A DNA stretch of 64,000 bases from the NCBI GenBank assembly GCA_010093815.1, contig ML996571.1, one strand, 5' to 3'. The position numbers were made by a program, and so were the translations under genes. The notes beneath the pieces were generated by a model. That model saw only the letters and a list, made by a program, of their open reading frames with translations, was not told where the DNA came from and did no database searches. Source of the DNA: Pseudovirgaria hyperparasitica. Lineage: Eukaryota. The stretch's first letter is position 1, and each line of letters starts with the position of its first letter. This document shows, in pieces, positions 11,280 through 57,432 of the stretch.

Positions 11280-14200
11280 ATGGCGAACATGAATTTCAGT
11301 TTTTCTAGCGCGCCCCTGCGCCCCATCAGGGAGATTCAGTTCGGGTTGCTGTCTCCTGATGAGATTAAAAACATGAGTGTTCAACACATCGAGTATCCGG
11401 AGACTATGGTATGAGCAATTGTACACATGCATGCACAAATTACTCACTGTCACATAGGACGATGAGAAACATCGACCACGTGAAAGAGGACTTAACGACC
11501 CAAAGCTCGGCTCGATCGACCGCTCCTTCTCTTGCGCTACCTGCAATGAAAACATGCAAGAGTGCCCGGGCCATTTTGGTCACATCGAGCTAGCGGTTCC
11601 CGTCTTTCATGTTGGTATGCGGTCCTTGGCCCTATCAATTTCAGTCGTAAGCCCTATTAACACGCTTTTTAGGCTTCATCACGAAGATCAAAAAAATCCT
11701 CGAGACTGTTTGCCACAATTGCGGCAAAATAAAAGCTGATGAGAACAAAGAAGACTGGAAGCAGGCTGTGCGGTTACGAGATCCAAGGCGTCGCTTCAAT
11801 GCGATTTGGAACTGTTCTAAGGCTCGCAAAGTCTGTGAGACTGACGCTGAAGATGAAGACCCCAAAAAACCCAGGATACAGCATGGGGGATGCGGCAATC
11901 TTCAGCCTGAGATTCGAAAGGAGGGACTCAAACTCTTCGCGCGATTCAAGGCACCGAAATCAGAGGATGAAGAAGCCAAAGATGAGAAGAAAGAGCTGAA
12001 ACCCCAAGATGCGCTCAATGTGTTCCGTCATGTAAGTGACGAAACATTGATTCTGCTTGGGCTTAACAAGGACTGGGCTCGCCCCGAGTGGATGATCATA
12101 ACCGTCCTACCGGTACCACCACCACCCGTTCGACCCTCGATATCTGTTGATGGTACTGGACAAGGCATGCGCGGAGAGGACGATCTGACCTACAAACTTG
12201 GCGACATCATTCGAGCGAACGCTAACGTCGGAAAATGCGCGACTGACGGTTCGCCCTTGCATGTAACCAATGAATTCGAGAGTTTGCTCCAGTACCACGT
12301 TGCAACATATATGGACAACAATATTGCGGGCCAGCCTCAGGCAATGCAGAAATCTGGACGACCGGTCAAGTCAATCCGCAGCCGCTTAAAGGGTAAGGAA
12401 GGCCGTATTCGTGGCAATTTAATGGGCAAACGTGTTGACTTCTCGGCACGTACTGTCATCACGGGTGACCCTAATTTATCCCTCGATGAAGTGGGAGTCC
12501 CACGCAGTATCGCACGAACTCTCACTTACCCGGAGACTGTCACTCCTTATAACATTGCAAAATTGCATCAACTCGTCCGTAACGGCCCTAACGAACACCC
12601 TGGTGCCAAATATGTCATCAGAGACACTGGTGAGCGCATCGATCTAAGACATCACAAGCGCGCTGGAGAAATTACTCTCCAGTATGGTTGGAAAGTGGAG
12701 CGACATATCGTTGACGGAGATGTCATCATCTTCAATCGTCAGCCATCACTTCACAAGGAATCCATGATGGGTCACCGCGTCAAAGTCATGCCTTACTCAA
12801 CTTTCCGTTTGAATTTGTCTGTCACGTCTCCATACAACGCCGATTTCGACGGCGATGAGATGAACTTGCACGTACCACAGAGTGAAGAGACTAGAGCTGA
12901 GGTGATGAACCTGTGCATGGTTCCTCTCAACATCGTCTCACCACAGGCTAATCGCCCACTAATGGGTATCGTTCAGGATACATTATGCGGTATTTACAAA
13001 ATGACGCGACGTGACGTCCTGTTGACAAAGGAGCATGTGATGAACTTGCTGATGTGGGTACCCGGTTGGGACGGTGTTATTCCTCAACCGGCCATCTTCA
13101 AGCCAGCTCCAAGATGGACTGGCAAGCAGCTTATAAGTATGGCTTTGCCAGAGATCAACCTCATCAGGCGCAGCAAAGATGGATATCACCCACTCTTGGA
13201 GGACACGGCGATTCTGGTTCACCGTGGTGAGCTCGTATATGGTATGTTCAAGAAGAAGACGGTCGGAGCCTCTCACGACGGCATTATCCAGACTATTTAT
13301 AACGAGAAGGGCTGGCAAGCAGCTGTCGATTTCTTCAATGCCGCACAACGCATTGTCTGCTACTGGTTGCTTCACCATGGATTCAGTATCGGTATTGGTG
13401 ACACCGTGCCAGGCCCCGAGACTACGAAGGCGATCCAATCTGTTATCGCACAACAGAAAGGTAATGTCGAGGAGATCACAGCAAATGCTACAGCGGATCT
13501 GTTGGACCCACTTCCCGGCATGAATCTCCGTGAGACATTCGAAAGTAAGGTGTTGAAGGAGCTTAACGAGGCGCGTGACGAAGCTGGAAAGTTGGCCATG
13601 AAGAGTTTGAAAGATTTGAACAACGCCGTGCAAATGGCTGATTCAGGTTCCAAGGGTTCTTCCATCAACATCTCGCAAATGTCCGCGCTTGTGGGACAGC
13701 AGTCAGTGGAAGGCAAACGTATCCCGTTCGGGTTCAAATATCGCAGTCTGCCGCATTTCACGAAAGATGACTACTCTGCGGAAGCTCGTGGCTTTGTCGA
13801 AAACTCGTATCTTCGAGGTCTGACACCGACAGAATTCTTCTTTCACGCTATGGCTGGTCGTGAAGGTTTGATTGACACTGCGGTCAAAACCGCCGAAACT
13901 GGTTATATTCAAAGAAGATTAACGAAGGGTTTGGAAGACGTAATGGCGAAATACGACGGCACTGTCCGCAACTCGCTTGGCGATGTCGTGCAATTCACTT
14001 ATGGTGAGGATGGGCTTGATGGAGTCTCCATTGAGGCTCAGTCAACCGACGTTGTCACCATAGCTGATAAGCAATTCGAGAGGATGTGCAAGGTCGACTG
14101 CATGGATCCTGACCTCAAGCTCTCTTCTAATGTACTGGAAATGGCTAGCGAGCTCGATGGCAACCTTGAAGTCCAATCCATGTTTGATGAAGAATGGGAG

Positions 14201-16721
14201 CAGCTCATGAAAGATCGACAGCTACTTCGAGATTATATCAACCGCGAAGCAAAGGACGACTACCATCTTCCCCTGAACATCAAGCGTATCATCACTATGT
14301 CCAAGCAAAAGTTCCGTATCAAGGATGGTGCTCGCAGTGATTTAGATCCTGTAGAGGCCATCACGAAGATTCGGGAGGTCTTGGATCGATTAGTCGTTAT
14401 TCGTGGTGACGATCCAATCTCTCGGGAAGCTCAGGCGAACGCTACTTGGTTGTTGAAGGCACATATGCGATGTCAGCTCGCTTTCAAGCGAATCGTGCGA
14501 GAGCATTCATTGAACAAGCTTGCGCTTGACAATGTACTCGGCGACTTGGAAGCCCGATTCGCCCGGAGTGCCATCAGCCCTGGAGAGATGGTAGGAGTCC
14601 TGGCAGCGCAGTCTATCGGTGAGCCTGCTACACAGATGACTCTGAACACTTTCCACTTCACTGGTATTTCAGCGAAGAATGTGACTTTAGGTGTGCCCCG
14701 TCTACGAGAAATTCTAAATGTCGCTACCAACCTAAAAACGCCATCGATGACCATTTATCAAGCGGATCGACGAGGCGGCCCTGACGCTGTCATGCAACTG
14801 AGAAACAAAATTCAGTACACTACCCTTCGTCACTTGGCTGAAGCCACGGAAATATGGTACGACCCAGATATCCAGGGTACAGTCGTTGAAGCAGATCAAG
14901 AAATCGTCGAGTCGTACTGGATTCTGCCCGACGAGGACGAAGCCAGTGTTGAGTTGCAGTCCAAGTGGTTGCTGCGTATTGTGCTCAGTCGCCAGAAGCT
15001 TCTCGACCGTGGTCTCACTGTCTCCGAAGTCGCCTCGGCGATCAGGTCGCAGTATGACAAGAACAACCTGCACGTGATATTTAGTGACAATAATGCTGAA
15101 GAGTTGGTTCTTCGCATTCGTTTTATCCACGACGAAGACATGCGCAAGAACCAAGAGGACGAGGAGGGCGAAGATCAAGATGAGAAGTGGATTCGCAAAC
15201 TAGAGAAGGATCTTCTCGATCGTAACGCTTTGCAAGGCATTGAAGGCATCTCGAGATGCTTCATCAACAAAGAGGAATTGAGCATTCAGACCTTAGCCGA
15301 TGGCTCACTCGTAAAGAGCAAAGCATATCCCGAATGTGTCGAATGTACACTGGAAACTACTGGCACTGCACTTGCCGAGGTGTTGGCTGTGGATGGCGTC
15401 AACCCGTACCGTACCACCACGAATTCGTTCCGCGAGTTTTTAGAAGTCTTTGGCATCGAAGCTGCTCGCGCATCATTATTCAGGGAACTTCACGCGGTTC
15501 TCTCATTCGATGGTTCGTACGTGAACTACCGCCATATGGTGCTGCTTGTTGATGCAATGACCGTTCGCGGGTATATCATGCCAATTACTCGTCACGGTAT
15601 CAACCGCGGCGAGACCGGTGCGCTGATGCGATGTTCTTTCGAAGAGACTGTAGAGATTCTCTTGGATGCCGCAGCGTGCGGTGAACTTGACGACTGCAAG
15701 GGTATTTCAGAGAACATTATGCTCGGTCAGCTCGCACCCATGGGCACTGGTGAGCTAGACGTCATCATGGATCAAGATATGTTGAATACCATGAACAACG
15801 ATAACGCTCGCCTTGGTCTGATGCCCGGTTTAGCGGCAGCTCCTGGTTTCATGGACTCCGGTGCTGCCACACCATACGACGTCGGTTCGCCTATGCACGA
15901 GGATGCTCTCGGTGGACCAGACTATGGCGCATCATTCTCGCCTATCATTCAGCCGGGAGGTGATGATAGAGGAGGTTTCACATCGATCCCCTCGTTTGGC
16001 GACGCAAACAGTCCATACTCGTCCCGCAGCCCTGGCGGCTACAATCCGCAAAGTCCTTTCAGCGGGCCAAGTCCAACCTCTCCAGGCGGGTGGTCTCCCA
16101 CGTCGCCCGGCGGCGGATACTCACCGACCTCTCCTGGCATGAGCTTGACAAGCCCACGTTTCGGCGCTACATCCCCAATGTTCAACCCCACCAGTCCGCA
16201 ATACTCTCCGACATCTCCTACGTACTCGCCGACCTCGCCCGCATACGGCGCTGGCACTTCGCCAACATCACCCAACTATTCCCCCACATCGCCAAGCTAC
16301 TCTCCGACATCCCCGAGCTACTCTCCCACGTCTCCAAGCTTCAGCCCGACCTCGCCAGTTCATCGAGCTACGGCCACATCACCTCACTACAGTCCAACCT
16401 CGCCCCAATACAGTCCGTCTTCTCCCATGTATAGCCCAACAAGTCCGCAGTTCAATGCTGGTAGCGATCGACGATCACCTACTTCTCCTACCTCACCAAG
16501 CTACAGCCCGACGAGTCCGGTATACAGTCCAACAAGTCCTGCTGCTGGGGCGTACTCTCCGACATCTCCTACGAGCTACTCTCCAACATCACCGGGAGCG
16601 GCACCATACTCGGCCCAGTCGCCGAAATGGTCGCCGACGAGCCCCAAATACTCCCCAACGTATGTCTTCTTGGCTCTCTAGAGGATATCGACTGACAAAT
16701 TTCAGATCCCCACGCTCGTAA
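11280..16721 (+). CDS. RPB1: DNA-directed RNA polymerase II largest subunit
   Basis: [11 protein letters not shown] zinc motif, catalytic [16 protein letters not shown] trigger loop and YSPTSP CTD repeats. Introns ~11409-11457, ~11615-11672 and ~16660-16705. Confidence 0.99.
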
Positions 16722-17605
16722 CGGCCTCGCTAGGCTACATATATCAGCAACTCGGCGGGCATTGATCTTGTAAGACCATTCTCGTCCTTGTTTGTATTAC
16801 CACAAGTGTGCCTCAGTGCTGATAGATTTGGCATAAAGCTACCCGCTTCGCTATCTCTATTCATTGAGCCACTGCTCATCCGCTACGTGGAGTCCAACGT
16901 ATCCTTAGCTGGACCCACGTTCGTCCTCGTCAGTGGAATTATTTTCCAAATTCTCCAATTACTGTAATATCACGGTTCGTACCTTGCCATGGAACGATCA
17001 AAGCTGGTCTGTCCAACAAAAAGCCAAAAATTCTTCCCCTGGACGCTACTGCATTGAGCTGGTCAACTATTGGATAAATTTGCTTTGCCGATTTGCTTTC
17101 TCTCTGTTGTTTAAACTTGAAGGATCGGTCCCCTGTTTGGGCTTGCTAATGGGCTTCTATTACGGCGTTTATATCGGGGCTCTTTGCATTTACCATAGCA
17201 TACACACTCTGTGTGCTTCCCTGTTACATTTCGAGATGAGCAACATAGTTCATGTTGGGTGACGGATGTGGATTGAGGACACACCAAATTGCACACAGAT
17301 CCTGCGATATATATTTCACAGGGATAGGGCGATAGATAGCGCGACGAAACCGTCGCATAGACTAGGTTGGGACAGAAGCGAGACAGACTGTGTGACAGAG
17401 ACGGCGTGTCTGACATTGAGCGAAAAGAAAATATTGAAGACAAATATTATGAAGATCCAATACGTCGCTGTGTATTGTGCCGTGCACAGTGAGACTCATA
17501 ATGCTACGAGCGCCTTAGCCTATCCATACATGCATCATTCGAACGAGACCTGAAGCTATGTGTGCACTAACACCATAACTCTGATCTACCACCTCATCCA
17601 CCGCA

Positions 17606-18729
17606 ATGGCAAATTCGAAGTGCGCGAATCGAACTCTCTGTCAAAGGCCACTGGCGCTAATCTTTGCAGGTACGAATATGTGCGCCTCTTTGAACAACCT
17701 GATGCGCTGCTTCCCAACACCTGGATCGTCGTGCGCATCGATGGACGAGGTTTCCACAAGTACTACAAGCCCTACACAAGCCCCGCGAAACACAAAAGCT
17801 AATAACATACCGCAGATTCAGCAAGAAATATGACTTTGAGAAGCCCAATGACCGCCGCGCTGTTGACCTCATGAACGCAGCCGCTCGCGGCGTCATGCAA
17901 GAGCTGCACGATCTCGTGCTTGCATACGGCGTTAGTGATGAATTCAGCTTCGTGTTCCACCCCAGCACGACGCTGTTCGAGCGCAGAGAAAGTAAACTGG
18001 TCAGCACTATTGTGAGTACATTCACGAGCTATTACGTGTTCTCGTGGGGGAAATATTTTGAGGGTGTGGATCTGGCACCGCCATTGCCGACTTTTGATGG
18101 GCGTGCGGTGTGTTATCCCAGTGTGGGCAATCTCAGGGATTATTTGAGTTGGAGACAGGTTGATTGTGAATACTATGGTCACTCAATAGAAGAGGGAGGC
18201 TAATAGGTAACAGGTCATATTAATAACTTGTACAACACGACGTTTTGGAACTTGGTGCAAAAGGGTGGGATGAATACGACGGATGCGGAGAAAGAGCTTG
18301 CTGTAAGTACGCATAGCCTGTATTTTGTGTCTACAGAGGTAGCTTATGAGAACAGGGCACGGTATCGGCAGACAAGAATGAGATCCTATTTTCGCGCTTT
18401 GGTATCAACTATAACAATGAGCTGGATGTTTGGAAGAAAGGGAGTGTTCTTTTTCGAGAGGTCGGTCTCGTACACATAGTCTGAGAACGCTTGTTAACCA
18501 TCCATAGTACGAGCTTGCCGCTGTTGAGAATCTTTCTGAGTCATTGTCTGAGTCAACTGAGCCTTCGACTGCAGTCCCAGTCCCTGTGACCAAGACAGCC
18601 ATCAATAAGGATGCGAAGCTGAAGAAGAAAGCACAGGTTATAATCATGCACACCGATGTGATCAAAGATGAGTTTTGGCAAAGGCGGCCATGGATACTGA
18701 GTGGAAAGGCTGGCAATCTGCTGACTTGA
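17606..18729 (+). CDS. THG1: tRNA(His) guanylyltransferase
   Basis: [58 protein letters not shown]; five introns. Confidence 0.96.
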
Positions 18730-18918
18730 GAGAAGCCTTGCATTGCTAAAGTGAATTGACGAAAGCATACCAGTTGTCAAGCTCGAGGGAAGAGGCGGTA
18801 GGGAGATAAGATAAAGCGACCTACCGAGAGCGCAGAGGCGCAAAGTTATGGTTAGTAGTATCCTCGTGTCTGAAGAAGGCGAGATGAGCGAGTACGCACC
18901 TGTGAGAAGAAAAGTTTG

Positions 18919-19310
18919 ACCACACCCCGTCCTCAGCAGAGTAATCGGAATCGAATTGTACCTTCGCGTGACTCAGAAATGAATCAACGCTGCAGCACGC
19001 CGCGTATTGCACTAAAGTATCACAGCCGCTCCTGTACTTTCGAACAGCGAGCGGACCGCATACAATCTTCGCACCGGCTCCCATAGGGACACTGCTGCGT
19101 TCAAAGCAGACCCTGAGCTTTCTGATGCCAGTCGTGCGAACGTGAGATCACGTCGGACCCTTGCGGGCGGTGACCAGAGCTCTGTCCGGAGACGGAGATG
19201 GATGTGAGGTGAAGATTACTCCGAATTTCTCATTTGCATAGTTAGGATCTTGCCAAAGGCAGTCTGTGTGTGAGCAAAGAAACGCGGCGATGTAGAGGAC
19301 GGGGTGTGGT
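18919..19310 (-). ncRNA. RPR1: Nuclear RNase P RNA
   Basis: Perfect 16-bp terminal helix P1 (18919-18934 with 19295-19310). CR-I GAGAAAUUCGGAG (19219-19231) can pair with CR-V ACAAUUCGAUUCCGAUUA (18942-18959) to form P4. CR-IV AGUGCAAU (19006-19013); P2 CGCCGCGU/ACGCGGCG; CR-II-like AGAAA. Confidence 0.88.
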
Positions 19311-19381
19311 GAGGAAAAGAATTGAAGGTGAAGCTGGTTGGGACTTTTCTTTATCGTGCCTGCCAAGCCCTTCCTGACTCG

Positions 19382-19422
19382 TCGCGTAATCACGTGCGCT
19401 CTCTCCTGAGTCAATTACGCGA
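19382..19422. promoter_or_regulatory. Candidate bidirectional promoter elements between the RNase P RNA and the NAD(P)-binding gene
   Basis: A 9-bp inverted repeat (TCGCGTAAT / ATTACGCGA) encloses CACGTG (19391-19396) and TGAGTCA (19407-19413). Confidence 0.35.
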
Positions 19423-19506
19423 GTCTGGTGAGATGATCTCATCAATGCATAAGTGTGAGTGACGGTCGTCTACCAGTGACAAAACCTTATCATAGTATCA
19501 TTTGCA

Positions 19507-20271
19507 ATGTCCTCAGTACTCCTTTTTGGTGGCAGCGGCAAGGTCGCTCGCCATCTTACGAAACAGCTCGCCAGCTCTGGCTACACAGTCTACTCCGTCA
19601 TCCGCAATCCTGAACAAGTAGACGAACTCAAGGGTCTTGGTGCATCGCCGATACTCCAATCTATCGAAGACTCCTCTCAGGCTGACTTTGTTGATCTGAT
19701 CAAGAAACATAAGCCAACTGCTGTTGTTTGGGCAGCAGGCGCTGGCGGAGGAAATCCGGAGCGGACACAGAGTGTGGATTACAGAGGCGCTGTAAAGACT
19801 ATGGATGCCATTGCTCAAGCTGCAGACGAAGCGGGAACAACAAGGAGATATGTCACTGTGTCTGCACTCGACGTTCGTGATCGGGAGAGCAAGCCTGTTC
19901 CGAGCTGGTACGACGACAACGACAAGTCGATGAGCGACAGAGTCTGGGGCGTAATTAAGGCATATATGTTGGCAAAGTACGAAGCGGATAAATCGTTAGT
20001 TGAAGAGAATGGCAGACGAAAACTGGACTACACAATTGTGAGGCCAGGTGGGTTGAGTCAAGATCCCGCTGTCGGTGTGATTGCTGCTGGGCATGTCAAG
20101 CTAGGCAGGACTATTAGCAGAGAAGATGTCGCTGCTGTGGTCGCGGAATGTCTCAAGAATGAAAAGACCGTAGGACTTGCCTTCGATGTTGCTGGCGGCG
20201 ATACGAAGATATCCGAAGCAGTTGCGAAGATTGCTTCGGATAGAGTGGATACTTTTGAAGGGTTCCACTGA
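19507..20271 (+). CDS. NAD(P)-binding Rossmann-fold protein (atypical SDR, YMR090W/UPF0659-like)
   Basis: Intronless 254 aa; FGGSGKVA, WAAGAGGG, YxxAK, YTIVRPGGL, ISREDVA. Confidence 0.85.
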   Translation: MSSVLLFGGSGKVARHLTKQLASSGYTVYSVIRNPEQVDELKGLGASPILQSIEDSSQADFVDLIKKHKPTAVVWAAGAGGGNPERTQSVDYRGAVKTMDAIAQAADEAGTTRRYVTVSALDVRDRESKPVPSWYDDNDKSMSDRVWGVIKAYMLAKYEADKSLVEENGRRKLDYTIVRPGGLSQDPAVGVIAAGHVKLGRTISREDVAAVVAECLKNEKTVGLAFDVAGGDTKISEAVAKIASDRVDTFEGFH

Positions 20272-20565
20272 ACATATCATGAGAACTTCTAGTAGTAGCC
20301 ATATGCAGGGGTACAACTCAAATTCTTTGATAATTGCACCTTTCAGTCGCAGCCGAAAAGGGTAATACGTCTTGTTATTCACACTGAGAATAGTTCCAAA
20401 GTGGACCCTTCGGTGTTCTTCGCGCGCAAGTGTACCGAGCCCCGCTTGGCTCAGTTGGGGAAGGTAAGGCACAGCTACTGTTCCGGTGGTGGCTGGATAT
20501 ATAAATGTCGACAACGTTCACGAACCAATCTAATATTGCTTCTCCAATTCTGACACTCTTACAAG

Positions 20566-57251: not shown

Positions 57252-57432
57252 CACACAAGGCACACAATACACAAGGCACACAATACACAAGGCACACAAT
57301 ACACAAGGCACACAATACACAAGGCACACAATACACANNNNNNNNNNACACAAGGCACACAATACACAAGGCACACAATACACAAGGCACACAATACACA
57401 AGGCACACAATACACAAGGCACACAATACACA
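57252..57432. repeat. 16-bp minisatellite (CACAAGGCACACAATA)n spanning an assembly gap
   Basis: Identical tandem units with a 10-N gap at 57338-57347, immediately 3' of the noxA stop. Confidence 0.93.

Follow-up and report, generated by a model that had tools for sequence, protein, structure and literature searches.

A conserved splice cassette behind the nuclear RNase P RNA gene of a fungal clade points to a possible spliceosomal route to its 3′ end

Introduction

How does a catalytic RNA obtain its 3′ end when a spliceosomal intron begins 19 nucleotides (nt) behind it? This question is raised by a 64,000-nt stretch of contig ML996571.1 from Pseudovirgaria hyperparasitica (assembly GCA_010093815.1; the whole stretch is called the window here, and positions count from its first letter), in which the gene for the nuclear ribonuclease P (RNase P) RNA lies on the minus strand and is followed by a 5′ splice site, a branch site and a 3′ splice site. 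A sequence-only reading of this locus had proposed that the RNA may be an RNA polymerase II (Pol II) transcript whose 3′ end is produced by splicing or spliceosomal cleavage. In most eukaryotes RNase P RNA is a product of RNA polymerase III (Pol III), as stated in the available parts of PMC6797745 and PMC4287351.

Using RNA-derived contigs and a survey of relatives, we found that the intron is removed in RNA and that its donor and branch site, not its acceptor, have been kept behind RNase P RNA at fixed spacing across a whole clade. These results support the earlier interpretation overall. We judge it slightly likelier to be right than wrong that the RNA comes from a Pol II-type precursor and has its 3′ end set by the first step of the spliceosome, as in fungal telomerase RNA.

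Results

An intron behind the RNase P RNA is removed in RNA

Along the minus strand, the RNase P RNA match is followed by GGGGTGTGGT and then by CAAACTTTTCTTCTCACAG|GTGCGT. The 3′ tail or exon end, CAAACTTTTCTTCTCACAG (18900..18918, minus), is 19 nt long and pyrimidine-rich, and its T4 run (18913-18910, minus) is the sole T run between the RNA and the donor, in agreement with the sequence-only reading, which had seen only a T4 run there. That reading had also placed CAG|GTGCGT at 18899, TACTAAC at 18851-18857 and TAG at 18821, and all three are present on the minus strand. The 5′ splice site GTGCGT, in the context CAG|GTGCGT, spans 18894..18899, with the G of GT at 18899 and the cut between 18900 and 18899. 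TACTAAC (18857-18851) forms part of an extended branch-site element, GGATACTACTAAC (18851..18863, minus), whose branch A presumably lies at 18852, and the 3′ splice site TAG occupies 18821..18823 (minus; 18823-18821 in reading direction), with exon 2 running from 18820.

These elements delimit a spliceosomal GT-AG intron of 79 nt (18821..18899, minus), compared with 47-56 nt for the five RNA-confirmed introns of the converging gene, which encodes a Thg1-like protein (transfer RNA (tRNA)-His guanylyltransferase). The first G of the donor and the branch A are 47 nt apart, and the branch A and the G of TAG are 31 nt apart. The latter distance measures 9, 10 and 13 nt in the three of the five Thg1 introns that have a consensus branch site, which bears out the earlier remark that the roughly 30 nt from branch to AG exceed what most protein-gene introns show here. 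Exon 2 is antisense to the 3′ untranslated region (UTR) of the Thg1-like gene. A second donor named by the earlier reading, GTATGC, does start at 18770 (minus); no joint at it was found among the RNA-derived contigs over 17400-20400.

The RNA-derived data were Logan contigs of two public runs, X1 and X2, both from one sample of one study. We aligned the contigs to 17400-20400 at a likeness of at least 90%, and all 11 placed records proved at least 99% alike. The kind of both runs is listed as '?'; that they derive from complementary DNA we conclude from their contigs, in which five GT..AG introns of the Thg1-like gene are missing. In X1, one contig carries a joint 18818->18898 ('skips 79, CT..AC (cut +2)'), equivalent to a skip of 18821-18899. 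The skipped stretch has the plus-strand borders CT..AC, which read as GT..AG in the minus direction, and it is exactly the predicted intron; its removal joins 18900 to 18820. The spliced junction across 18899-18821 that the sequence-only reading had suggested looking for thus exists, and the intron is used. An unspliced contig over 18793-18927 (depth 46.4) stands beside the spliced one; contig depths were not used for ranking transcripts, and the uncovered stretch 19319-19419 was left out of the evidence. It is this joint only that tells the strand, and it means that a minus-strand transcript, reaching back to at least about 18926, crosses the RNase P 3′ end and the T4 run and meets the spliceosome.

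A covarying closing helix places the donor 19 nt behind the RNA

Where the RNA ends determines how far the donor lies from it. Scanning the 64-kb window with Rfam revealed no RNA gene besides one match to RF00009, the nuclear RNase P RNA, at 18929-19300 (minus; 30.9 bits against a gathering score of 28, covering the full model, positions 1-301). The closing helix P1 reaches beyond this match: 19310-19301 (ACCACACCCC) pairs with 18928-18919, adding ten pairs to the Rfam model, and the same extension in relatives pairs 5′ AAGC-RYC-GTCC with GGAC-GRY-GCTT 3′. Across an alignment of 26 RNAs (A1; columns 1-16 with 578-593), P1 is a 16-pair helix with 91.3% of its cells paired and compensatory changes at nine pairs; none of 500 shuffles scored as high on any of five measures, and slid controls were 38-60% paired. 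Given this covarying helix, the gene most likely extends from 19310 to 18919 (18919..19310, minus; 392 nt) and the donor lies 19 nt behind P1, close to the 20 nt given earlier. P1 being about ten pairs longer than in the Rfam model, the gene extends about 10 nt beyond the Rfam boundaries on either side.

Alignment A1 also contains the invariant blocks ATGAGAAATTCGGAG, CATCAGAAA, AGTGCAAT and TTCGATTCCGATTACTC of the core regions CR-I, CR-IV and CR-V. CR-V (18942-18958, minus; A1 columns about 555-575) reads AATTCGATTCCGATTACTC across the clade described below, and includes a B-box-like string, TTCGATTCC, that is invariant in 26 of 26 sequences and is also part of the catalytic core. About five extra nucleotides (TTCGA-like) apparently inserted relative to the Rfam consensus give rise to this string. 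As regards the outer ends, most RNase P RNAs of the clade start with AAGC and end with GCTT, and P1 very often gives way directly to CACC, CCAC or CAAC, as in GCTT|CACCA, among 29 sequences with the cassette. The long stem, resembling an acceptor stem, and the NCCA-like single strand behind it would give the end of the RNA a faintly tRNA-like look.

Donor and branch site are conserved in relatives at fixed spacing

We scanned metagenome contigs with a pattern for CR-IV and CR-V of RNase P RNA, AGTGCAATN{30,60}ATTCNGANTACTC, and obtained at least 120 loci, many of which, among the 120 matches listed, are bacterial chance matches. Sixty loci that were eukaryotic-looking and non-redundant were chosen for Rfam, and RF00009 was confirmed in 40 of these 60 (16/20, 14/20 and 10/20 by batch). 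Both donor and branch element accompany 24 of the 40 confirmed RNAs (16/16, 8/14 and 0/10 in the same batches), as counted by regular expression and corrected by eye for missed donors. The sequence-only reading had looked to relatives for a conserved donor and branch point, and the cassette layout is indeed found in 40 of the 120 loci among the matches listed. These represent, besides the window, 28 distinct sequences and L014, a locus whose branch element reads GGAATACTACTAAT; 34 of the 40 have TACTRCTRAY and six have a variant, A[CT][AGT]TGCTAAC, picked by eye. Figures below refer to the 29 distinct cassette sequences, window included, or to the 23 loci with a complete 5′ end.

The branch site is longer than the usual motif. 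Its general form is GGRTACTRCTAAY, represented by GGATACTGCTAAT in 13 sequences, GGATACTACTAAT in four, the window's own GGATACTACTAAC in two, and other close variants. Over the 441,466 scanned bases of the 120 loci among the matches listed, TACTRCTRAY occurs 34 times in the 90-nt zone from +40 to +130 (sense strand, behind the CR-V match) versus four times elsewhere, where 3.4 were expected; the 13-mer with its leading GGR, GGRTACTRCTRAY, occurs 33 times in that zone and never elsewhere.

Spacing is kept as well as sequence. All 23 loci have a tail of 16-21 nt (median 18) from P1 to the donor, and the branch A follows the donor G by 35-76 nt in the 29 sequences. Every donor begins with GT (GTGAGT in 8, GTCAGT in 5, GTTAGT in 3 and others in 13, among them one GTCAGC and the window's GTGCGT), preceded by CAG in 17 of 29, AAG in five and TAG in three. 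The tails are pyrimidine-rich throughout and hold T3-T10 in all 29, the longest run being T3 in seven, T4 in three, T5 in nine, T6 in three, T7 in two, T8 in two and T10 in three; none contains the usual purine-flanked Sm consensus. An alignment of the 29 sequences (A2, mean column identity 39%) shows that only (C)AG|GT, with its GT invariant, and the branch element are conserved after P1. Donor and branch element are thus conserved in kind and in spacing, and the rest of the intron is not.

Could the arrangement be noise? A cryptic intron in antisense read-through over the Thg1-like 3′ UTR, with no role for RNase P, would account for a cassette that lies antisense to that UTR and for a single spliced contig. 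Chance alone produces such placements rarely. With intron-like spacing required, a strict cassette, GTRNGT..TACTAAC..YAG, matches five times at four loci on both strands of the window, against 0.46 expected from 100 Markov simulations; from these cassette counts, a donor would by chance fall no more than 100 nt from a set position, on a set strand, with a probability of about 4e-4. Even with one mismatch allowed, the 13-mer GGRTACTRCTRAY occurs once in the 64-kb window, at this cassette. Its recurrence in 40 of the 120 loci among the matches listed, whose flanks (up to 1,500 bases per side) hold no Thg1-like sequence, refutes the noise account as far as sequence tells. We give that account next to no credence, and it is confirmed that the placement of the cassette is not due to chance.

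As for the neighbours, tblastn with a Thg1-like exon and with the NAD(P)-binding protein encoded on the other side of the RNA gene found neither in any of the 120 loci among the matches listed, within the same flanks, which means that RNase P RNA and Thg1 are not a conserved pair. The cassette travels with the RNA gene, not with its neighbours. Its carriers are diverse, with pairwise identities in A1 from 0.47 upwards (median 0.61) and with 22 clusters at 90% and 18 at 80%, that is, 18-22 RNA lineages including the window. In a rough FastTree of 38 Rfam-bounded RNAs, whose support values we left out of account, all 25 cassette-bearing RNAs fall in one clade, and the RNAs outside it lack the cassette and have T runs right after P1.

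Three loci nested in the cassette clade (L007, L020 and L040) gave no match to the regular expression. We count them as a variant and not as losses, having found by eye a 15-nt tail, GTTGGC or GTTAGC as donor, and GGTGCTGAC about 35 nt further on.

One lineage outside the clade (L034, L095, L096, L113 and L114) has a layout of its own. P1 is followed directly by T6-T12 and then by a conserved hairpin, CTCTCCTTCGGAGA. Some 85 nt downstream, AAG|GTGYGT is conserved too, and within a few nucleotides come CTAAT or CTGAT and AG, which would make up a mini-intron-like unit of about 23 nt. In L034 itself, which scores 87 bits, a tRNA gene lies about 250 nt downstream on the other strand.

Conservation stops short of the acceptor

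The 3′ splice site behaves differently from the donor. The first YAG at least 7 nt past the branch A is found at 17-232 nt, and beyond 40 nt in 13 of the 29 sequences; one locus, L074, has no AG of any kind for 83 nt. Donor, branch site, their spacing and the distance from the RNA are kept and the acceptor is not, which is the signature of spliceosomal 3′-end formation of the kind known from fungal telomerase RNA. Judged from the alignments, selection would appear to keep what the first splicing step needs and not what the second step needs.

This pattern bears directly on a simpler account, in which the RNase P RNA is exon 1 of an ordinary spliced and polyadenylated Pol II non-coding RNA. Complete splicing would then be normal, aiding expression, export control or termination, and other nucleases would make the 3′ end. 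An exon-exon junction is, after all, what was observed, and the window's donor GTGCGT and acceptor TAG are canonical; insect RNase P RNA does come from a Pol II host transcript, according to the accessible parts of PMC4287351 and PMC6797745. Against this account, neither the acceptor nor exon 2 is conserved, the genes downstream differ among loci, and the features that are conserved are those required for step one. In the available part of bioRxiv 10.1101/224170, moreover, the distance from branch to 3′ splice site predicts discard of splicing intermediates in vivo. We therefore regard full splicing as the normal fate of this RNA as improbable.

Binding of small nuclear ribonucleoproteins (snRNPs) with no cut at all offers another explanation of the same pattern. 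U1 and U2 would sit on the precursor to block polyadenylation, to retain it in the nucleus or to help ribonucleoprotein assembly, and exonucleases would form the 3′ end. Conservation is limited to the elements that U1 and U2 bind, and the part of PMC4299874 at hand, citing Kaida 2010, has U1 inhibiting nearby polyadenylation. Yet the intron of the window is excised, therefore catalysis does occur, and the 35-76 nt between donor and branch A are what a catalytic spliceosome demands. Binding alone seems to us quite improbable, even more so than a plain host intron. What the pattern fits best is a donor cut, and we infer that the mature 3′ end arises by this cut, as opposed to complete splicing or a different nuclease.

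The upstream region and the choice of polymerase

Which polymerase delivers such a precursor? The putative promoter (19311..19413, minus) has the following layout. Directly before the presumed start at the first P1 base lies a CT-rich tract (19350-19311, minus), with a TATA-like ATAAAG at 19354-19349 (-44) and, further upstream on the same strand, GAGTCA (19380-19375), CACGTG (19396-19391) and TGACTCA (19413-19407); GAGTCA and TGACTCA we take to be Gcn4/AP-1-type sites. The arrangement recurs in relatives: the CT-rich tract abuts the first P1 base in 23 of 23 upstream regions, with a mean C+T share of 0.78 for -40..-1 (0.65 in the window), and several loci have an A/T-rich box about 40-50 nt upstream. 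GAGTCA or TGACTC is found in 10 of the 23 and CACGTG(AT) in five, and a string like CTAGCGCC was seen by eye in several. This shared layout might be what a class of small-RNA promoters in these fungi has at its core. Short introns together with CT-rich promoters would suit filamentous ascomycetes.

Signals of a Pol III gene were sought in the same regions. Fungal Pol III terminates at a run of five or more T. The window's T4 is not a good terminator by this measure, no run of five or more occurs in the window for about 300 nt past the cassette, and T4 or shorter is all that precedes the donor in 10 of the 29 sequences, the window among them. We found no leader with A and B boxes, the sole B-box-like string, judged by eye with no matrix scan, being TTCGATTCC inside CR-V; the covarying P1 starts right after the CT-rich tract and leaves no room for a leader. 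No acceptor sequence precedes the 5′ end of the RNA, which lies upstream of the donor and not inside the intron of a host gene. From the look of the promoter, the missing Pol III terminators in some lineages and the splicing, we infer transcription by Pol II.

A proposed route to the 3′ end

Taken together, these features suggest the following sequence of events. Transcription would start from the Pol II-type promoter at the first P1 base (19310) and continue past the 3′ end of the RNA. The spliceosome would assemble on the donor 19 nt after P1 and on an unusually strong, extended branch site, and the first splicing step would cut after 18900, freeing RNase P RNA with a short U-rich tail. Exonucleases would then trim this tail toward P1, perhaps under cover of La or Lsm proteins; the U tract of the tail is a possible site of Sm, Lsm or La type. 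We propose that a strong branch site combined with a distant or missing 3′ splice site makes the second step slow. Full splicing would be a minor side product on polyadenylated read-through RNA and would yield the spliced RNA seen in X1.

The branch element itself may add to the stall. Its leading GGR-UAC is left unexplained by the usual pairing with U2 small nuclear RNA, which leads us to an alternative register. The branch-binding stretch of U2 holds a GUAGUA motif. Drawn against this stretch, GGRUACURCUAAY would offer U2 two overlapping registers, one the usual pairing with a bulged A, the other a bulge-free helix of nine base pairs in which GGRUACURC would pair at nine positions; in each of the two, a U of U2 would lie opposite both R positions. 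The constant 16-21 nt between P1 and donor, in turn, would allow docking of the folded RNase P particle to the spliceosome. The full combination, in which the RNase P RNA of the clade left Pol III, is cleaved by the spliceosome, is stalled by a two-register 13-mer and has P1 docked near the donor, is tentative: we can see it holding, and rather more easily see one of its parts failing.

Several observations weigh against spliceosomal cleavage of a Pol II precursor. Nothing sets the window's donor, GTGCGT, apart from ordinary ones, and completed splicing is observed. Support for the junction consists of one X1 contig (depth 24.5) whose shorter side of 26 letters falls below the 31-letter bridging criterion; four further letters fit both sides, and the sum of 30 is that expected for a junction path in a 31-word graph. 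X2 contains no spliced contig, contigs showing presence and not absence, and contigs as such cannot show RNA ends, lariats, caps or polymerase occupancy. The contig over the body of the RNase P RNA (18946-19299) is not assignable to a strand, and for that reason the spliced RNA is linked to the RNase P gene only from about 18926. Nor is the Pol III side empty: T5-T10 precede the donor in 19 of 29 sequences and would stop Pol III, the B-box-like TTCGATTCC is invariant in the clade, and a Pol III transcript can be spliced, as fission-yeast U6 with its intron of messenger RNA (mRNA) type illustrates.

The last three points are the mainstay of the main rival, a mixed route in which Pol III transcribes the gene and the spliceosome serves as a fail-safe. 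Most transcripts would stop at the T run of the tail, and the cassette would handle read-through only, whether by Pol III or by stray Pol II, trimming it to usable RNA or consigning it to spliceosome-mediated decay. This proposal gains from the lineages outside the clade that have T runs after P1 and no cassette, from the Pol III origin of RNase P RNA in most eukaryotes as given in the sources named in the Introduction, and from the spliceosome-mediated decay of BDF2 described in the available parts of PMC3792478 and bioRxiv 10.1101/224170. It fares worse with the 10 of 29 sequences, window included, that offer only T3-T4, where the T length required excludes an end made by Pol III, and with the roughly 300 nt behind the window's cassette that hold no T run of five or more. 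Nor would one expect a fail-safe to fix the distance from P1 to the donor at 16-21 nt in all 23 loci or to preserve a 13-nt branch element, and the gene has no RPR1-like leader with A and B boxes, P1 starting where the CT-rich tract ends. We consider the mixed route unlikely, and spliceosomal cleavage of a Pol II-type precursor stays our preferred reading.

Comparison with known systems

Box 2008 reportedly described spliceosomal cleavage of the fission-yeast telomerase RNA, TER1. Like that RNA, the RNase P RNA of the window is a structured non-coding RNA with an intron directly behind its mature end, a U-rich tract just before the donor, a strong branch site and a long distance from branch to 3′ splice site (31 nt in the window). 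It differs in being a classic Pol III product, in its longer conserved 13-mer branch element, in having no canonical Sm site (AU5-6G type) and in that cleavage is here predicted. A spliced form is seen here, as with TER1, which has minor spliced and polyadenylated forms beside its main product; such forms of telomerase RNA are recorded in Kannan 2015 (PMC4299874, in the part available).

The same source, again in part, describes three ways in which telomerase RNA processing halts after step one. In Schizosaccharomyces pombe, a branch site perfectly complementary to U2 and a long distance from branch to acceptor stop step two; in S. cryophilus and S. octosporus, a highly unusual GUCAGU donor over-stabilises pairing with U6 and blocks it; and Aspergillus and other filamentous fungi have an AUA(A/C)GU donor, each donor sitting behind a U-rich or pyrimidine-rich Sm-like motif (PMC4299874). 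With TACTAAC and 31 nt, the window appears to fit the S. pombe type of stop. Six of the 29 RNase P cassettes resemble S. cryophilus and S. octosporus in their GTCAGT or GTCAGC donors; the window, by contrast, has GTGCGT, and an effect of GUCAGU in these fungi would rest on analogy. The order of pyrimidine-rich motif, donor and branch site is shared with telomerase RNA of Aspergillus, presumably an organism of the same kind, whereas an A as the first intron base is absent from all 29 RNase P cassettes. Since all donors are GT, any block to step two must work otherwise than in Aspergillus. In general support of the distance argument, spliceosome profiling found that the distance from branch to 3′ splice site predicts discard of the lariat intermediate in vivo, and the substrates of interrupted splicing named there are only TER1, BDF2 and one further mRNA (bioRxiv 10.1101/224170, available part).

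Two further systems concern RNase P RNA itself. In insects and crustaceans it resides within an intron of a host gene transcribed by Pol II, as reported in the accessible parts of PMC4287351 and PMC6797745. As we propose for the present clade, RNase P RNA has there come off Pol III and depends on Pol II and on processing linked to splicing; there, however, it lies inside the intron, and here it forms exon 1 upstream of the donor, from the start site on. At the other end of the range stands RPR1 of budding yeast, which Pol III transcribes together with a leader carrying A and B boxes and with a 3′ trailer. A 3′-extended precursor with a U tract that La or Lsm could bind would be common to both, and the gene in the window differs by the missing leader, by T4 only and by a conserved splice cassette behind it.

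Finally, U6 and BDF2 show that the spliceosome acts on non-standard precursors and, on the portions of the sources available, that interrupted splicing can be a regulated outcome. The fission-yeast U6 intron is internal and is fully spliced. Cleavage of BDF2 destroys the RNA (PMC3792478 and bioRxiv 10.1101/224170, in part), unlike the route suggested here, in which the 5′ product would be the functional RNA.

Neighbouring genes and an antisense transcript

On the plus strand, the Thg1-like gene, with five short introns, extends from its ATG at 17606 to a stop codon at 18729 and is convergent with the RNA gene. Of these introns, the fifth (about 18459-18507) is still present in an X1 contig and has been spliced out in X2. 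The gene for the NAD(P)-binding protein starts at 19507 (plus) and diverges from the RNA gene. Downstream of the cassette, the window has no minus-strand coding gene that could own the intron. The Thg1-like protein and RNase P both act at tRNA 5′ ends, and their genes are paired in none of the 120 loci among the matches listed. Further away, a gene at 11651-16681 (plus), 2 kb from the Thg1-like gene, encodes the largest RNA polymerase II subunit and its tail of heptad repeats; a run of 10 N occupies 57338-57347.

A 384-letter contig found in both X1 and X2 places 354 letters on 18946-19299, and its remaining 30 letters match nothing. Those 30 letters are one short of the 31-letter word size, and the matched part ends at a plus-strand A with a genomic C next. 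A poly(A) tail would explain them, if the Thg1-like mRNA reads through on the plus strand and ends precisely where the RNase P gene has its 5′ border; another poly(A) site would lie near 18975. In that case the entire RNase P gene would be covered in antisense by the converging mRNA. Having at first considered this contig as RNase P RNA, we dropped that assignment, as polyadenylated plus-strand read-through is no worse a fit. We also rejected a circular junction returning to 18946, since the next letter would be C and would have aligned.

Discussion

Our analysis describes a spliceosomal intron that begins at a fixed distance behind the RNase P RNA in a clade of fungal relatives and that is spliced in the window. 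The literature we searched, in which subscription journals are thinly covered, reports no splice cassette behind RNase P RNA. In the parts available, papers that join 'spliceosomal cleavage' with 'RNase P RNA' concern telomerase proteins and do not make the link, and those on 'spliceosomal cleavage' since 2015 deal with telomerase or with general splicing and contain no case of RNase P RNA. PMC2871058 names both RNase P RNA and Pezizomycotina, in passages that have no bearing on this subject. The mechanism is known; what is new is the substrate, the change of polymerase that it implies, and the branch element with its spacing rule.

Formation of functional-RNA 3′ ends by spliceosomal cleavage has so far been described only in fungal telomerase RNA. 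If our preferred reading is true, RNase P RNA would be the second class of cellular RNA to be matured in this way, and it would have a maturation route in common with telomerase RNA, to which it is already linked through shared Pop proteins (PMC13303942, in the part available). The 13-nt element with its fixed spacing would provide a signature by which further RNAs of this kind could be searched for and the restraint on step two could be dissected. The finding is also relevant to tools that express guide RNAs from Pol III genes in these fungi. On our preferred reading, an essential and universally conserved ribozyme would, within a major fungal group, have switched to another polymerase and to another machinery for forming its end.

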